A DNA stretch of 64,000 nucleotides. Origin: an uncultured Bacteroidales bacterium (GTDB lineage: Bacteria > Bacteroidota > Bacteroidia > Bacteroidales > F082). The stretch is taken from assembly GCA_905234645.1 (NCBI GenBank), contig CAJOIS010000002.1, forward strand, positions 59,326 to 123,325, given 5' to 3'. Below, in pieces: positions 28,170 through 59,491 of this stretch (position 1 is the stretch's first letter; each line of letters starts with the position of its first letter). Under the pieces are notes generated by a model that had not been told where the DNA came from, did no database searches, and worked only from the letters and a program-made list of their open reading frames with translations. The position numbers and the translations under genes were made by a program.

Positions 28170-29417
28170 CTAATTGTTCTTATTAACTATAACTTGAGCT
28201 ATCCTCTCCCTCCACAAGTCGGGCACTTGTGCCTCGGCAGCAAAAGTCTTCCAGTTGCTTATCGCATGACTCACCTCCCGAACCACGCCCTCAGCCTGTG
28301 ATATATCGTTCTCCTCGGCAAAACGCAACAGGTCAGCCTCGGTGATGCCGTCCGTCTTAATACCCAACGAAAGAGAATGCCTGTTAAAATATTTCGGTCC
28401 GTCCAAATCTATCGTAAACAGCATATCATACGCGGGAGCCAAGCTCCATGTGCCTTGCTTGTCCATCAAGAAGGAAAAATTCTTGCTGTGGTCATCCACA
28501 TTGCCACCCAACACGTTAAAGACCATACGACGGTACAGCTCCCTCTGCTGTGACTCAGGGAGGCGCAAACGACGACATACCGAAAACAACTCATCGTATG
28601 AGGTGGCATCAGGATCCATCGCCGCCAAAGTTAGCACATGCACTTTTTCCCCTTTTTGACGGTCGAACCGTTCTGTGAGAAAATGCCGCTTCCCCTCAAT
28701 CGTCATCAGTCGGCTGGGCATCATTGCGATACCGGCAGCACACGCCATCTTGTAGTAGGCATATTCAACCTCTGAGAAAGGAAATTCCTTGTCATCATTG
28801 AATTTCAAGATATAGTGGACATAATCACTTGACAAATCAGCCTGTCCCGACCTGATGTCACCTTCCTCATTGATGGCAATGACCGCCTTGGCCCGCTTGC
28901 CGCCAGCCGAGGTCCCCACCCGATACAAATCCTCCAGCAATATGTCGTCACCCTCCTTAAGCAGAATCTCTTGTCTTTCTTCCTGAATGGCAAGGGCAAG
29001 GTGATACAACTCCTCCACAGGAATAGGCATATTGCCCCCTGTCAACAGTTGCGCCGGCTGGAACTCCAATGCTCCCATGCCTCGTTTCCCTATGAATGAG
29101 AGGCGGTCGAGCGGGTTGAGTTGCTGCGAATTGATATTGTTTTGTTTAGCCCAAGCCTCAAACACGCGGTTACCCCAACGGTCGGGCAATGAATCCGCCA
29201 CAAAAGGAGGTAGGCCAGCATATAGTTTATCGCCATTACCATGCCGTGGCAACAAGGCAGACGGCGATTGTATCGAGCACCACAAAGGAGCCACTTCCCA
29301 CCCCGTCTCGAGAAATTCCTTCTCAAAGACGAACGTAGAGCAGCGTTTGTGGCTATCCCACGAAAGATAACCCAACACTTTTCCCCAAAGCCATATTGCT
29401 ATTGAGTTATTTCCCAT
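28170..29417 (-). CDS. hipA: HipA-family serine/threonine kinase toxin
   Basis: N-terminal coupling domain (WLWGKVLGYLSWD) and the catalytic GNVDDHSKNFSF motif. Confidence 0.85.
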   Translation of the reverse strand: MGNNSIAIWLWGKVLGYLSWDSHKRCSTFVFEKEFLETGWEVAPLWCSIQSPSALLPRHGNGDKLYAGLPPFVADSLPDRWGNRVFEAWAKQNNINSQQLNPLDRLSFIGKRGMGALEFQPAQLLTGGNMPIPVEELYHLALAIQEERQEILLKEGDDILLEDLYRVGTSAGGKRAKAVIAINEEGDIRSGQADLSSDYVHYILKFNDDKEFPFSEVEYAYYKMACAAGIAMMPSRLMTIEGKRHFLTERFDRQKGEKVHVLTLAAMDPDATSYDELFSVCRRLRLPESQQRELYRRMVFNVLGGNVDDHSKNFSFLMDKQGTWSLAPAYDMLFTIDLDGPKYFNRHSLSLGIKTDGITEADLLRFAEENDISQAEGVVREVSHAISNWKTFAAEAQVPDLWRERIAQVIVNKNN

Positions 29418-43751: not shown

Positions 43752-43863
43752 GTTCTTATCCTTTCATAAACCCACAAAAGGGATTTCCGAATTCCATTTG
43801 CAAAAATAGCGATTTTTCAACAAAAAGGCATCCTATCTCATAGAATTTCCCTACATTTGCGGC

Positions 43864-44409
43864 ATGAAAATTTCTTCCTATCTTCGGAATAGAGCCTTAA
43901 AGCATGCTTTTGAGCAGTTTCTCGCCGAGAAGACACCCGCCAAAATGCCCAATCTTCAGCGGATTAACTCCGTGTTGGTCATCCTTGACGAGAACGACAA
44001 GAGCATCCATAAAAACATAGAAAGCAGCGTAAAAGCCCTTTTCGGCGCCGGCCGTTGTGGCTTCATCATCCTCTGCAATCAGATGTCGGACACCATCTTG
44101 CAAAGCGACCTCTATAACGAGATTACGCCCAAGGACTTCGGCTTTATGAGTGTGCTGAAACCAGAAAAGCACGAATACCTAAGGAAATTACCTTACAGTG
44201 CGATGATCATCAACATGGCCGGAAAGAGTTCCGAAATCAGCGACTATCTCTGCACCTTGCCGAAGTCTGACTTCAGGATCAGCTTCCAGCAGAGCAAAAA
44301 CGCCGGGCTTTATGATTTGGTCATTGAAAATCCCAGAAACACCGACCCTGTTTCCAACATCCACGTCCTGCACAACTACCTGAAAGCGTTGGCGGGGCCA
44401 CAACAATAG
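43864..44409 (+). CDS. Hypothetical protein
   Basis: Long ORF with plausible composition. The start is uncertain because a TAnnTTTG box ends only 4 nt before the ATG. Confidence 0.45.
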   Translation: MKISSYLRNRALKHAFEQFLAEKTPAKMPNLQRINSVLVILDENDKSIHKNIESSVKALFGAGRCGFIILCNQMSDTILQSDLYNEITPKDFGFMSVLKPEKHEYLRKLPYSAMIINMAGKSSEISDYLCTLPKSDFRISFQQSKNAGLYDLVIENPRNTDPVSNIHVLHNYLKALAGPQQ

Positions 44410-47771: not shown

Positions 47772-47779
47772 TAATTTTG
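47772..47779 (+). promoter_or_regulatory. -7 box (TAATTTTG) for bamD
   Basis: TAATTTTGCAGCCCGATG. The ATG follows 7 nt after the box. Confidence 0.5.
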
Positions 47780-47786
47780 CAGCCCG

Positions 47787-48584
47787 ATGAAAAAGAGACT
47801 TTTGATACTGGCAGTTTTGGGTCTTATCGCCTTTGCCTCGTGCAACGACTTCAACCGCATGGTGAAAAGCACCGACAACGAGATGAAATACGAGGTGGCG
47901 ATGGATTTCTATGAGCGTGGCGACTACAACCACGCCCTACAGCTATTCGACCTGCTGCAAGCCTCATTCCGCAACACCCCAAAAGGAGAAGCCATCACCT
48001 ATCGGACTGCGCAATGCTACTATTGGCAAGGTGAATATGAAATTGCCAGTTATTACTACAACCGTTTCGTCCAGATGTATCCCTTCTCAAAAGACGCTGA
48101 GAAGGCGGCATTCATGAGCGCCTACTGCAGTTACATGCTTTCGCCTGAGTCGGGGCTGGACCAAACCAACACCCACGACGCAATCAAGCAACTGAGGAGC
48201 TTCATGGATCGCTATCCTGAAAGCGACAGTTTGAGCCGCGCCGAGTACCTTTTGACCGACCTTAACAACAAACTTGAAGAGAAGGACTACAACATGTGCC
48301 GTCTCTTCTACCGCATGGAGAACTACAGCGCTGCCATCACCTCGTTCGAGAACATGCTGAAGAAATATCCCAACACGACACACCGCGAGGAGATTCTCTA
48401 CCAAATGGCCAAGACCTATTACGACTTTGCCGAGAACAGCATCACCGAAAAGCAACGTGAGCGTTTCGAGTCGTGCGTCGAGCATTGCAACACCTTGTCG
48501 TACCTCTATCCCAACAGCAAATACCTGCAAGATGTGAACGGCATTGCCGCCAAAGCAAGAAAGAGATTAGAAAAACTACAATAA
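47787..48584 (+). CDS. bamD: Outer membrane protein assembly factor BamD
   Basis: Lipobox FASC and a TPR-like repeat body. The conserved neighbourhood has rpoZ downstream. Confidence 0.8.
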   Translation: MKKRLLILAVLGLIAFASCNDFNRMVKSTDNEMKYEVAMDFYERGDYNHALQLFDLLQASFRNTPKGEAITYRTAQCYYWQGEYEIASYYYNRFVQMYPFSKDAEKAAFMSAYCSYMLSPESGLDQTNTHDAIKQLRSFMDRYPESDSLSRAEYLLTDLNNKLEEKDYNMCRLFYRMENYSAAITSFENMLKKYPNTTHREEILYQMAKTYYDFAENSITEKQRERFESCVEHCNTLSYLYPNSKYLQDVNGIAAKARKRLEKLQ

Positions 48585-55402: not shown

Positions 55403-57214
55403 TTACATTCGTTCGGGCATTCCAATGCCTAACAGTTCTGACGCGTTACGCAACAAGGCAGCCACCATGTCGCAGACCTGCAAACGGAACATGCGGCGGT
55501 CGGCATCGGCCTCCTTCAGGATGCTGCATTCCTGATAAAACTGGTTGAATTCCTTGGCGAGGTCGTAGATGAAGTTGGCGACCATGGCAGGGCTGCGGTT
55601 CTCGGCGGCCAGATTCAACACCATCGGCCAGCCGTACATCATCACGATGATTTCCTTCTCCTTGGGTTGCAGGTCGCTGACCTTCACCTCGCTTTCGAGC
55701 TTGATACCTTGCTCCTCGGCCTTGCGCAACACCGAGCAGATACGAGCATGGGTGTATTGCACAAACGGGCCTGTGTTGCCGTTGAAGTCGATGGACTCCT
55801 CGGGGTTGAACAGCATGGTCTTTTTCGGGTCGACCTTGAGGATGAAATACTTCAAAGCGCCCAGACCAATGGTGTGATACAGCTTGTCGGCCTCCGCGGG
55901 CGAGAGATCCTTGGCCTTGCCGAGCTCCTCAGAGACACCCTTGGCGGTAGCCACCATCTCGTCCATGAGGTCGTCGGCGTCGACCACAGTGCCTTCACGG
56001 GATTTCATCTTGCCGTTAGGCAACTCCACCATGCCGTAGGACAGGTGTTCTATATCATTGCCCCACTCGCGACCGAGGCGCACCAACACGCGCTTCAACA
56101 CGTCGAAGTGGTATATTTGCTCGTTGCCCACAACATAAATCAGTTTCTCAGGGTCGTATTCCTTCACACGCAGCTGGGCGGTGCCGAGGTCTTGGGTCAT
56201 ATAGACCGAGGTGCCATCGCGACGCAGCAGGAGCTTTTCATCGAGACCCTCATCGCGAAGGTCGCACCACACGGAGTTGTCCTCACGGCGATAGAGCACA
56301 CCTTTGTCAAGGCCTTCCTGAACGAGTTCTTTTCCCAAAAGGTAGGTCTGGGATTCATAATATATCTTCTCAAAGGCCACGCCGAGACGCTTGTAGGTCA
56401 CATCGAAGCCGTCGTACACCCATTGGTTCATCGTCTCCCACAGGTGACGCACCTCGGGGTCGTTGGCTTCCCATTTACGCAGCATCTCACGGGCTTCCTG
56501 CATCAGTGGGGATTCGGCCTCGGCCTTGGCTTTGGCTTCTTCCTTGGCTTTGTCGTCCAGAGTATCGAAATCAGCCGGCAGCAACGCTTTCACCTCTTCC
56601 TTGAACTTCTTGTCGAACAACACGTAGAAATCGCCGATGAGGTGGTCGCCCTTCTTGCCTGTCGACTTCGGTGTGCAGCCGTTGCCCCACTTCTGCCAAG
56701 CCAACATGCTCTTGCAGATGTGAATGCCGCGGTCGTTGACCAGGTTGACGCGCACCACGTTCTTGCCGTTGGCCTTCATGATCTCCGACACGCTCCATCC
56801 AAGGAGGTTGTTGCGGATATGGCCTAAGTGCAGAGGCTTGTTCGTGTTGGGCGAGGAATACTCGATGACCACGTTCTTGCCTGAGACGGGTTTACGACCG
56901 AACTCACGGTTCTCGTGGTTAGCCTTAAAGAAATCCATCCAGAACTTATCGGAAATCAGCAGGTTAAGGAAGCCTTTCACCACGTTAAACTTGGCGATCA
57001 TGTCGGATTCATTAATCATCTCGGCGCCCATTTCGTTGGCCAACTGCTCAGGGTTGCGGCCTGCCAGCTTCACGAAGGGAAACACCACGATGGTCATGTC
57101 GCCCTCAAACTCGGGGCGCGTCTTCTGGAAATTCACCTGCTGCACAGGCGGTTCCTGTCCGTATAAATTCTTGAACGACTTTATGAAAAGTTGTCTTAAT
57201 ACTTCTTCTAACAT
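55403..57214 (-). CDS. argS: Arginine--tRNA ligase
   Basis: SSPNTNKPLHLGHIRN (HIGH region), class I fold, and C-terminal anticodon-binding DALR region. The ATG at 57214 is 20 nt downstream of a -7 box. Confidence 0.9.
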   Translation of the reverse strand: MLEEVLRQLFIKSFKNLYGQEPPVQQVNFQKTRPEFEGDMTIVVFPFVKLAGRNPEQLANEMGAEMINESDMIAKFNVVKGFLNLLISDKFWMDFFKANHENREFGRKPVSGKNVVIEYSSPNTNKPLHLGHIRNNLLGWSVSEIMKANGKNVVRVNLVNDRGIHICKSMLAWQKWGNGCTPKSTGKKGDHLIGDFYVLFDKKFKEEVKALLPADFDTLDDKAKEEAKAKAEAESPLMQEAREMLRKWEANDPEVRHLWETMNQWVYDGFDVTYKRLGVAFEKIYYESQTYLLGKELVQEGLDKGVLYRREDNSVWCDLRDEGLDEKLLLRRDGTSVYMTQDLGTAQLRVKEYDPEKLIYVVGNEQIYHFDVLKRVLVRLGREWGNDIEHLSYGMVELPNGKMKSREGTVVDADDLMDEMVATAKGVSEELGKAKDLSPAEADKLYHTIGLGALKYFILKVDPKKTMLFNPEESIDFNGNTGPFVQYTHARICSVLRKAEEQGIKLESEVKVSDLQPKEKEIIVMMYGWPMVLNLAAENRSPAMVANFIYDLAKEFNQFYQECSILKEADADRRMFRLQVCDMVAALLRNASELLGIGMPERM

Positions 57215-57274: not shown

Positions 57275-57282
57275 TATTTTTG
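57275..57282 (+). promoter_or_regulatory. Bacteroidota -7 box (TATTTTTG) for the pyrBI leader
   Basis: Matches TAnnTTTG. The context TTTGCAGTCCGATG is almost identical to the bamD promoter-start context. Confidence 0.55.
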
Positions 57283-57289
57283 CAGTCCG

Positions 57290-57433
57290 ATGAGATACCA
57301 AAACAAGCCATCGGAAAAGATTTTCTCCACGGAATCAATTGGTTCCATCAAAACGAATTTCCCTTTATCCCATATTGACGGTCACATTGTTGGCCGTCTT
57401 TTTTTTGCCAAATTCAACAAATCAAACAGATAA
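57290..57433 (+). promoter_or_regulatory. Candidate 47-codon pyrBI leader ORF ([47 protein letters not shown])
   Basis: The ATG lies 7 nt after the -7 box. The ORF reads through the terminator hairpin and T-run and stops 4 nt before the pyrB ATG. Confidence 0.45.
57377..57406 (+). terminator. Intrinsic terminator/attenuator in the pyrB leader
   Basis: GACGGTCA-cattgt-TGGCCGTC (8-bp stem with one G.T) followed by T8. It sits 31 nt upstream of the pyrB ATG and its orientation only fits the plus strand. Confidence 0.7.
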
Positions 57434-57437
57434 GCCT

Positions 57438-58358
57438 ATGTCAATCTCACTGAAAAACCGCAGCCTGATTTCCATCAGCGACTACACGCCGGAAGAAATC
57501 TGCCATGTCCTCGACATCGCTGAAGACTTCGAGAAAAACCCGCACCAGAACCTGCTGAACGGGCGCATCATCGCCTCGCTGTTCTTCGAGCCTTCCACCC
57601 GTACGCGTCTGAGCTTCGAAACCGCCATTCAGCTCCTGGGTGGCAATGTCATCGGCTTCAGCAGCACCGCCGGAACGAGCATCCAGAAGGGCGAATCCTT
57701 GGCCGACACTATTACCATGGTGGCCAGCTACGCCGACCTCATCGTCATGCGCAACCCCATCGAAGGCTCGGCCCGCTTTGCCTCCGAGGTTTCGAAGGTG
57801 CCGGTCATCAACGCGGGTGATGGTGCCAACCAGCACCCCACGCAGTGTATGCTCGACCTTTACAGCATCCGCAAGACGCAGGGCACACTTGAAAATCTGG
57901 AGATTACCCTCGTCGGCGACCTGAAATACGGCCGCACCGTCCACAGCCTCGTCGAGGCCATGTGCAACTTCAATGCGAAGTTCAACCTCGTCTCGCCCGT
58001 CGAGCTGAAGCTGCCGAGCGTCGTCAAACAGCACATCAAGGACCGCAACCTCGAATATCATCAATACACTGAGTTGGAGGATGCCATTCCCCACTCCGAC
58101 ATCATCTACATGACTCGCATCCAGCGCGAGCGCTTCCCCGACCCCGAGGAATACGAGAAGGTGAAGAACTCATACGTACTTCGCAACTACATGCTCGACG
58201 CCTCCAAACCCAACTGCCGCGTACTGCACCCGCTACCGCGCGTCAACGAGATCCACGTGGACGTCGACGCCAACCCGAAAGCCTACTACTTCCAGCAAGC
58301 CCAAAACGGCGTCTATGCCCGCCAGGCCTTAATCGCATCAATCTTAGGACTTAAATAA
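57438..58358 (+). CDS. pyrB: Aspartate carbamoyltransferase catalytic subunit
   Basis: [17 protein letters not shown] and HPLPR motifs. The ATG at 57438 is chosen over the track TTG at 57339. Confidence 0.9.
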
Positions 58359-58366
58359 TCACAACC

Positions 58367-58834
58367 ATGGAAAAGAAAAAAGAACTGACCGTCAGCGCCA
58401 TTGAGAATGGCACCGTCATCGACCATATTCCCGCCGACAAAGTCTTCCAAGTCGTCAAAATCTTGGGCTTGGAGAAAGTCAGCACCCCCGTGTATTTCGG
58501 CACCAATGTCGAAAGCAAGAAATACGGCACCAAGGGCTTCATCAAAGTCTCCGACAAATACTTCGAACCCGAAGATGTAAATAAAATCGCCCTCGTCGCC
58601 CCTACCGCTTCCATCATCGAAATCAAGGACTTTGAGGTCATCAAGAAGCAAACCGTCACTATCCCTGAGCGCATCGAGCACATCGTGAAATGCTTCAACC
58701 CGAACTGCGTCACCAACAAAGAACATGATGTGCCGACCAAATTTACCGTCATCAAGGATGCACAGGGCAACATCAAGCTTCACTGCCATTATTGCGAGAA
58801 GAACACCACGCAAGACAAGTTGGAATTCATCTAA
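58367..58834 (+). CDS. pyrI: Aspartate carbamoyltransferase regulatory subunit
   Basis: VSAIENGTVIDHIP and C-terminal Zn site CFNPNC..CHYCEK. Confidence 0.9.
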   Translation: MEKKKELTVSAIENGTVIDHIPADKVFQVVKILGLEKVSTPVYFGTNVESKKYGTKGFIKVSDKYFEPEDVNKIALVAPTASIIEIKDFEVIKKQTVTIPERIEHIVKCFNPNCVTNKEHDVPTKFTVIKDAQGNIKLHCHYCEKNTTQDKLEFI

Positions 58835-58909: not shown

Positions 58910-59491
58910 ATGAAGAAAACAGGTATCATTATCGCCATTATTGTGGGTGCCATCCTCATCTGGGGTGTTGGTACCTACAACGGCCTCGTGAAGAAGCAGG
59001 AGAACATGACCAAGGCTTGGGGACAGGTGGAGAACGTCTATCAGCGTCGTGCCGATCTGGTGCCGAACCTCGTCGCTTTGGTGAAGAACTATGCCGAATA
59101 CGAGCAAAGCACGCTCATCTCCATCACGGAAGCGCGTGCCCAAAAAGCGGCCAACACCAGCGTCAACATAGAGAGCTACACGGAGAGCGACCTGCAGAAC
59201 TACCAAGCTGCACAAGACGAACTAGGCGAGTCGCTGAATCGTCTCATCGTCTCGATCGAAAACTACCCCGACTTAAAGGCAAGCGAGAACTACCTCACCT
59301 TGCAGGCACAGTTGGCAGGCTGCGAGAACCGCATCATGACGGAGCGTGAACGCTTCAACGAGGCGGCCAAGGTCTACAACCAAAGCGTCCGCAAATTCCC
59401 GAGCAGCATCATTGCCAACATGTTTGGTTTCGAGAAGCGGCCTTATTTTGAGGCTCAAGCTGGGGCCGATACAGCGCCGGAGACGTTTTAA
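58910..59491 (+). CDS. lemA: LemA family protein
   Basis: N-terminal TM segment plus YNGLVKKQENMTKAWGQVENVYQRRADLVPNLV. Confidence 0.85.
   Translation: MKKTGIIIAIIVGAILIWGVGTYNGLVKKQENMTKAWGQVENVYQRRADLVPNLVALVKNYAEYEQSTLISITEARAQKAANTSVNIESYTESDLQNYQAAQDELGESLNRLIVSIENYPDLKASENYLTLQAQLAGCENRIMTERERFNEAAKVYNQSVRKFPSSIIANMFGFEKRPYFEAQAGADTAPETF

Follow-up and report, generated by a model that had tools for sequence, protein, structure and literature searches.

We analyzed a stretch of 64,000 nucleotides from an uncultured Bacteroidales bacterium (contig CAJOIS010000002.1, positions 59,326 to 123,325; hereafter the window) with regard to the 5' leader of its pyrBI operon, which encodes the catalytic and the regulatory chain of aspartate carbamoyltransferase. 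The leader contains an intrinsic terminator that is crossed by an open reading frame (ORF) of 47 codons, and on comparative sequence evidence it probably works as a ribosome-mediated transcription attenuator of pyrBI, analogous to the pyrBI attenuator of E. coli. The parts of this interpretation differ in strength. It is very likely that the terminator is conditional and controls pyrBI, and likely that translation of the leader suppresses it; as for the input, we lean towards UTP-dependent pausing as in E. coli. The resemblance to the enterobacterial attenuator is one of analogy, not of homology, and the two differ in how the leader ORF is initiated. The parts of the locus, all positions being those of the window, are as follows.

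57275..57282 (+): -7 promoter box TATTTTTG, which matches the Bacteroidota sigma-A consensus TAnnTTTG (direct reading)
57287..57289 (+): predicted transcription start, from the box spacing; the leader AUG thus lies at +2 to +4
57286..57315 (+): P1, 5'-terminal hairpin UCCGAUG / CAUCGGA enclosing the leader AUG (fold prediction)
57290..57433 (+): leader ORF of 47 codons, ATG at 57290, TAA at 57431-57433, stop 4 nt ahead of the pyrB ATG
57331..57346 (+): P2, hairpin GGAAUC-AAUU-GGUUCC, candidate pause hairpin upstream of the pyrimidine tract (fold prediction)
57347..57376 (+): pyrimidine-/U-rich tract directly 5' of the terminator, candidate nucleoside triphosphate (NTP)-sensitive pause region
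57377..57398 (+): terminator hairpin (attenuator stem) GACGGTCA/TGGCCGTC, 8 pairs (5 G-C, 1 G-U) and a 6-nt loop
57399..57406 (+): T8 tract of the terminator (direct reading)
57407..57437 (+): A/C-rich spacer with the leader stop codon and without a promoter box (box scan)
57438..58358 (+): pyrB, aspartate carbamoyltransferase catalytic chain (NCBIfam TIGR00670, 368 bits; 50% identical to E. coli PyrB)
58367..58834 (+): pyrI, aspartate carbamoyltransferase regulatory chain, second gene of the operon (NCBIfam TIGR00240, 151.9 bits)
55403..57214 (-): argS, divergent neighbour (NCBIfam TIGR00456, 429.9 bits)

The first-pass annotation of this region had described the box, the ORF and the terminator, and all of them were found again. 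The box is read at exactly 57275-57282, the frame opens at ATG 57290 and ends 4 nt before the pyrB ATG at 57438, and on its way it crosses the 8-bp hairpin (57377-57398) and the T8 tract (57399-57406). The U-rich stretches upstream of the hairpin were located as GATTTTCTCC at 57319-57328 and AATTTCCCTTTAT at 57357-57369. A likeness to the promoter context of a bamD-like gene, which had also been claimed, holds as well, and the start of that gene (TAATTTTGCAGCCCGATG, ATG 47787) has the identical geometry of box, 7 nt and ATG. The ORF spans P1, P2, the pyrimidine tract, the terminator and the T8 tract, which ends 31 nt before the pyrB ATG. Since argS is divergently transcribed, the terminator belongs to the pyrB 5' leader. 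Under a strict definition, strong hairpin-plus-T6 sites occur only four times on both strands of the window and the attenuator is one of them; the pattern GACGG..CCGTC.T5 occurs once, with none expected from shuffles.

For comparison, PyrB was scanned over one genome per GTDB species. The scan gave 80 loci, all from uncultured Bacteroidales and mostly from rumen or hindgut, several of them labelled Candidatus Limimorpha or Lentimicrobiaceae. PyrB identity to the window is 86-100% for L001-L052 and L064 and 71-76% for the remaining loci. Among the window and the 52 species genomes with PyrB at least 86% identical, 50 of the 53 leaders show a TAnnTTTG box followed after exactly 7 nt by an ATG. 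This count is made up of the window and 49 of the 52 loci L001-L052; L064, which was examined separately, is likewise arranged. The ATG frame enters or crosses the GACGG..CCGTC hairpin with T7-T8 in those 50 leaders, and the T tract is T7-T8 in all attenuator-bearing relatives. Loss of the hairpin or of the ORF in relatives had been named beforehand as a finding that would speak against an attenuator. Both were looked for and are conserved: about 50 species genomes and 36 metagenome contigs retain the hairpin, the box with its 7-nt spacing to the ATG, and a frame that stays open into the terminator, even across indels that shift the register.

From the ATG to where the T tract ends, stop codons were counted in 49 distinct leaders. 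The used frame has 5, all of them within the hairpin, and the other two frames have 134 and 88. The distance from AUG to hairpin varies among the leaders (77, 83, 86-90 and 46-47 nt), so that the terminator is read in all three registers, giving peptides such as ..DG..GRLFF, ..DG..KPSFFL, ..TV..SRLFF and ..AVFFL in the terminator region. The leader stop lies at most 45 nt before and at most 31 nt after the pyrB ATG. Variable sites are spread over the codon positions as 15/16/13 in the closest cluster, i.e., without codon periodicity, and the leader peptides are not conserved and match no Pfam or NCBIfam family. The absence of stops is therefore the sole coding-like signal, as is expected if the act of translation, and not its product, is under selection. 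Selection thus appears to act on translation rather than on the peptide, and a functional small protein selected at the peptide level is unlikely given the lack of codon periodicity.

The same arrangement was recovered from metagenome DNA with a pattern that consisted only of CCGATGA, the two hairpin arms and T6. It gave 123 matches, 36 of which (28 distinct leaders) carry a correctly placed -7 box. All 36 precede pyrB and all 36 have a crossing ORF; the used frame of these leaders contains no stop, the other frames 71 and 29. Nowhere among the box-bearing matches does the element stand upstream of another gene. The 87 matches without a box served as negative control: a crossing frame is present in 17 of them and none adjoins pyrB. 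The examples that were inspected are ordinary terminators at gene ends.

At the RNA level, a P1-like hairpin of equal position and shape was predicted in 27 of 30 lineage representatives. RNAalifold shows compensatory CG-to-UA pairs in P1, and 89% of its cells are paired, compared with 19-62% in controls with slid pairing partners. The conserved CCG directly 5' of the AUG forms the base of this hairpin. At the P2 position, a hairpin is found in all 43 long-type leaders, with divergent stems (GGAAUU/AAUUCC, GGUUUAC/GUAAAUC, AGAAG/UUCUU). The 30 nt before the terminator hairpin have a mean T fraction of 0.44 versus 0.22 earlier in the leader, and a mean pyrimidine fraction of 0.68 versus 0.40 (0.80 in E. 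coli); T6-T8 runs occur in this tract in several lineages. The GACGG/CCGTC core of the terminator is conserved, with 96% of cells paired in 30 sequences. The RNAalifold consensus consists of P1 and the terminator only.

An antiterminator was not found. The window leader folded up to the terminator loop gives P1 and P2 only (z = 0.30), and its fold leaves the terminator's 5' arm without a partner to pair with. In all 50 leaders, the stretch from the leader ATG to the pyrB ATG is free of TAnnTTTG boxes. As pyrB lacks its own promoter box, polymerase can reach pyrBI only by passing the terminator, and together with the missing antiterminator this fits a direct occlusion of the terminator by the ribosome. 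Rfam gave no family match for the window leader up to an E value of 10 or for 10 related loci at the gathering score, only hits at chance level or tRNAs.

Ribosome-coupled attenuation of pyrBI is a textbook case from enterobacteria, and the likeness of the window to the E. coli leader pyrL, with distances measured on the E. coli sequence itself, is close. The regulated operon is pyrB-pyrI in both. From AUG to hairpin there are 88 nt in E. coli and 87 nt in the window, from AUG to the end of T8 115 and 117 nt; the leader ORF that runs through the terminator has 44 and 47 codons, and its stop lies 3 and 4 nt ahead of the pyrB ATG. Both have an intrinsic terminator with T8, 23-31 nt before the pyrB ATG, and a hairpin before the pyrimidine tract (GCGUCU..AGACGC at +33 to +50 in E. 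coli, P2 in the window), and neither has a predicted antiterminator RNA. The sequence-level features of the pyrBI class are present: a leader terminator without a downstream promoter, a conserved crossing ORF, a hairpin with a pyrimidine region, and no antiterminator; the hairpin and pyrimidine pause region is absent in six leaders of a short type (L028, L031-L035). According to the passage of PMC5021804 that cites Roland et al. 1988, tight coupling of leader translation and transcription is needed in E. coli to keep the terminator from forming. In the 43 long-type Bacteroidales leaders, the distance from AUG to terminator is 83-90 nt, near the 88 nt of E. coli. Such near-equal distances in unrelated leaders hint at a kinetic or steric constraint on attenuators of this kind.

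Common descent with pyrL was considered and rejected. The PyrL family PF08052 scores 117 bits on E. coli PyrL and shows no match up to an E value of 10 on three Bacteroidales leader peptides, and an alignment of the leader DNA with that of E. coli does not stand out from shuffles (z = 0.64). The window leader differs from pyrL in its Bacteroidota -7 promoter type, in the lack of a Shine-Dalgarno sequence, in an AUG that lies 2-4 nt from the predicted 5' end and inside a conserved hairpin, and in that it has no initially transcribed region of the AATTTG type that would serve reiterative transcription. The E. coli attenuator depends on UTP; for the window leader such a dependence is presumed.

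Other known leader systems were compared. The trp and his attenuators and the Bacteroid-trp motif of Bacteroidota rely on regulatory codons in runs and on antiterminator and terminator hairpins that exclude each other. The pyrBI leader shares with this class a short, presumably translated leader, an intrinsic terminator and a biosynthetic operon downstream. An amino-acid leader-peptide attenuator was nevertheless rejected, as the leader peptides have no conserved codon runs, no antiterminator is predicted and Rfam gave no match. The Phe-Phe pair in the peptides is a product of the T8 tract itself, and codon runs upstream of the hairpin are missing. With the PyrR attenuators of Firmicutes, the leader has in common that pyrimidine genes are under conditional termination in the 5' leader. 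A PyrR-binding attenuator was rejected because Rfam gave no match to the PyrR site (window leader up to an E value of 10, 10 related loci at gathering score); the anti-antiterminator architecture of that class is also lacking, and a conserved crossing ORF is present instead. In attenuators of the pyrG type, an initially transcribed run of G is extended by reiterative transcription, and the added Gs pair with a pyrimidine-rich 5' arm of the terminator. This type was rejected on the initially transcribed (U)CCGAUG and on the terminator 5' arm GACGGUCA.

From these observations we infer leader translation, pausing of polymerase at the pyrimidine tract and UTP as the signal. Transcription would start 4-7 nt past the -7 box, which would leave the leader AUG 2-4 nt from the 5' end. 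Polymerase would then make P1 with the AUG, P2 and the pyrimidine-rich tract, and would meet the terminator about 87 nt past the AUG. When pyrimidine nucleotides (UTP, perhaps CTP) are scarce, polymerase would dwell at P2 and the tract behind it, and a ribosome engaged on the leader ORF could catch up, cover the emerging 5' arm of the terminator and block the hairpin, which would allow read-through into pyrBI. When UTP is plentiful, polymerase would outrun the ribosome, the hairpin would form and transcription would end at T8. The proposal of the first-pass annotation that the logic of the E. coli pyrBI attenuator operates here is supported by the conservation, by the matching layout and distances and by the absence of both an antiterminator and a separate pyrB box, and it passes every test that can be run on sequence.

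What the first-pass annotation had overlooked is that the AUG is nearly leaderless and lies inside a 5' hairpin. In Flavobacterium johnsoniae the -7 box covers -12 to -5, with the transcription start 4-5 nt downstream of it (PMC6847099). The mapped start of pyrB in Bacteroides thetaiotaomicron (BT_0742) is the G of ...TACCTTTACACTCCG (PMC7366714, supplementary file 3). Its context ...CACTCCG is very similar to that of the window, where CAnTCCG also precedes the leader ATG. The box-to-start spacing and the B. thetaiotaomicron start together place the leader AUG at +2 to +4, nearly leaderless and paired in P1. This start is the weakest link of the model, yet the most interesting one.

A hairpin of this kind is known from E. 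coli pyrC, where a 5'-terminal hairpin occludes the translation start under CTP/GTP-dependent choice of the transcription start site. P1 resembles it in that it occludes a start and has its base formed by the first transcribed C residues (CCG..CGG), so that start-site choice could decide whether P1 forms. It differs from pyrC in that the occluded start is the one of a leader ORF upstream of a terminator, not of an enzyme gene; the start sites are predicted ones. The retention of P1 in a variant which has lost the attenuator (L027) and in leaders whose AUG lies further downstream (group 2, see below) indicates that P1 has a role of its own. A two-input attenuator on a nearly leaderless leader ORF, with P1 acting beside P2 and the pyrimidine tract, is a possible, though speculative and rather unlikely, extension of the ribosome-mediated model. 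P1 would gate ribosome loading, either through CTP/GTP-dependent start-site choice as in E. coli pyrC or as a pause hairpin that is melted by initiation, and P2 and the pyrimidine tract would set the UTP-dependent coupling.

Other candidates for nearly leaderless starts were seen in the window, in each case a long ORF whose ATG follows a TAnnTTTG box at a distance of 4-7 nt, at 47772-47789 (+), 43849-43866 (+) and 28635-28619 (-). The ORFs are the 265-aa bamD-like lipoprotein at 47787, one of 181 aa at 43864 and one of 149 aa at 28619 (-). Messenger RNAs with short leaders may be commoner in this lineage than in B. thetaiotaomicron.

Natural variants show which parts of the leader can be lost. 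In the short-type leaders (L016, L028, L031-L035), AUG and hairpin are 46-47 nt apart, compared with 83-90 nt in the long type. L028 and L031-L035 keep the ORF and the terminator, L016 retains a T-rich stretch, and in L031, L034 and L035 the frame stops within the terminator loop. L027 is a natural deletion variant in which the box, the 7-nt spacer, the ATG and P1 (CCGATGA..TCACCGG) are kept, and P2, the pyrimidine tract and the terminator are lost; the element lies about 60 nt upstream of pyrB (locus ~2440-2500), and its 20-codon frame overlaps the pyrB start. At larger distance, the terminator GACGG..CCGTC is also present in group 2 (L053, L054, L055 and L071; PyrB 71-76% identical). Its ATG lies 22-26 nt past the box, the frame crosses the T tract in all four leaders, and P1 is kept with no AUG lying at +3; in L055 the end of the frame and the start of pyrB overlap as ATGA.

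Group 3 (L056, L062, L063, L065, L075-L078 and L080) has a different pyrB leader. A promoter-proximal ATG frame crosses the terminator in L056, L077 and L080, and in L078 as judged by eye; in L076 the sole crossing frame starts at an ATG 66 nt past the box, and the frames of L063 and L065 enter the hairpin. A third, unrelated leader type was seen in L062, L063, L075, L077, L078 and L080, about 100-190 nt upstream of pyrB. Its near-palindrome, TGACAGTCA or TGACTGTCA, is conserved; next come a GGCAC..GTGCC hairpin and a GCGAC..GTCGC terminator with T7-T9. In L075, L077 and L080 a tRNA gene stands immediately upstream of this leader. Rfam gave no family match for this leader type. Other loci at about 73% PyrB identity have a co-directional upstream gene and no terminator.

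Several points weigh against a ribosome-mediated, UTP-sensing attenuator. The ORF of the window on its own is not significant (P ~0.48, dinucleotide shuffle), and the same is true of any single leader, since shuffles are open in 10-60% of trials. The significance of the frame therefore rests on its conservation in relatives only; the shuffle probabilities of 18 lineage representatives multiply to ~1e-11 if treated as independent, but lineages are not independent and this product overstates the significance. Five leaders stop inside the hairpin, and in group 3 the frames of L062 and L075 stop 6-15 nt before it. In PMC4824070, a terminator a few bp past a translated gene was almost fully suppressed, and on that result the variants stopping inside the hairpin are compatible with the model. 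The short-type leaders L028 and L031-L035 have neither P2 nor a U-rich tract (T fraction 0.07-0.23). Initiation should be hindered at an AUG that is base-paired within P1 and only 2-4 nt away from the predicted 5' end. In the Bacteroidota studied so far, short leaders form a minority: 3.7% of the 5' UTRs (untranslated regions) of B. thetaiotaomicron are below 10 nt, and 5.5% of the mRNAs of F. psychrophilum are leaderless. Finally, the signal could be another one than UTP.

This last point leads to the alternative that survives best, although we consider it unlikely: the attenuator is ribosome-mediated but senses translation capacity or growth rate, a CTP/GTP-dependent start-site choice that sets the stability of P1, or an amino acid. 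The evidence for a crossing ORF is silent on the identity of the signal, the short-type leaders keep ORF and terminator in the absence of a U-rich tract, and the conserved CCG before the AUG builds the base of P1. UTP is favoured over these signals by the regulated genes themselves, pyrBI, and by a pre-terminator tract with double the T content found in the rest of the leader and with T6-T8 runs in several lineages. An amino acid signal is further disfavoured as runs of particular codons upstream of the hairpin are missing and Phe-Phe stems from T8.

A trans-acting factor or ligand that binds P1 or P2, such as a PyrR-like protein or a riboswitch ligand, could instead control the attenuator, with the ORF being incidental. 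This is in our view improbable. It would account for the structural conservation of P1 and P2 with covarying stems, for the persistence of P1 in the attenuator-less L027 and in group 2 without an AUG at +3, and for substitutions without codon periodicity. It leaves unexplained why stops are depleted in the promoter-proximal ATG frame (5 versus 134 and 88 in the species genomes, 0 versus 71 and 29 in the metagenomes) and across register shifts. P1 and P2 are small and have variable loops, unlike a fold with a ligand pocket; Rfam showed no match, including the PyrR binding site, up to an E value of 10 for the window leader, and no alternative antiterminator is present which a factor could stabilise or disrupt.

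A constitutive leaky terminator, or a stand-alone gene for a small RNA or small protein with no conditional role for pyrBI, is very unlikely. In its favour, termination would yield a structured RNA some 118 nt long that contains P1, P2 and P3, and leader transcripts can act in trans. Against it, pyrBI transcription has to pass the terminator in all 50 leaders lacking a pyrB box, the peptide shows no conservation and owes its C-terminal half to the terminator as read in three registers, and selection for an open frame would be pointless at a constitutive terminator.

The attenuator is restricted to certain lineages. In B. thetaiotaomicron the pyrB 5' UTR is 36 nt long (PMC7366714, supplementary file 3), which argues that the attenuator is not general to Bacteroidota. 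This pyrB may have a P1-only leader resembling L027. A protein search with PyrB for cultured Bacteroides gave only close relatives at 80-99% identity; for taxa outside the three groups, the published table of B. thetaiotaomicron start sites was the sole basis of judgement. A described pyrB attenuator of Bacteroidota was not found in the searchable literature.

Two further observations concern the surroundings of the operon. The gene after pyrI (58910-59491, +) encodes a protein of 193 aa, for which the sole NCBIfam match is the MamQ model with 107 bits against a cutoff of 250. As this is far under the model cutoff, the protein is not identified by the match, and we saw no sign that the gene belongs to the pyr operon. 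Directly after rpoC there is a very strong intrinsic terminator at 59939-59905 (-), with a stem of 12 pairs (9 of them G-C) and T7, followed 18 nt on by an ORF of 101 aa (59886-59581).

To our knowledge, translation initiation in Bacteroidota is not led by Shine-Dalgarno sequences, and we know of no work so far that has examined transcription-translation coupling in this group. A matching layout with matching distances but without detectable homology, found in uncultured rumen Bacteroidales, suggests convergence on a design under tight constraint. By the same token, transcription in Bacteroidota would also be open to ribosome-coupled control, with a ribosome able to follow polymerase closely enough to block a terminator. 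If the two-input reading is true, this would be the first coupling-dependent attenuator shown on a leaderless-type initiation, and direct evidence of a physical coupling of transcription and translation in Bacteroidota. The leader offers a natural case of a regulatory ORF that begins almost at the 5' end of the transcript, and it flags a class of short ORFs which gene callers will miss or mis-annotate in these genomes. As a compact element, it could serve as a testable reporter of both coupling and pyrimidine sensing in Bacteroidota.

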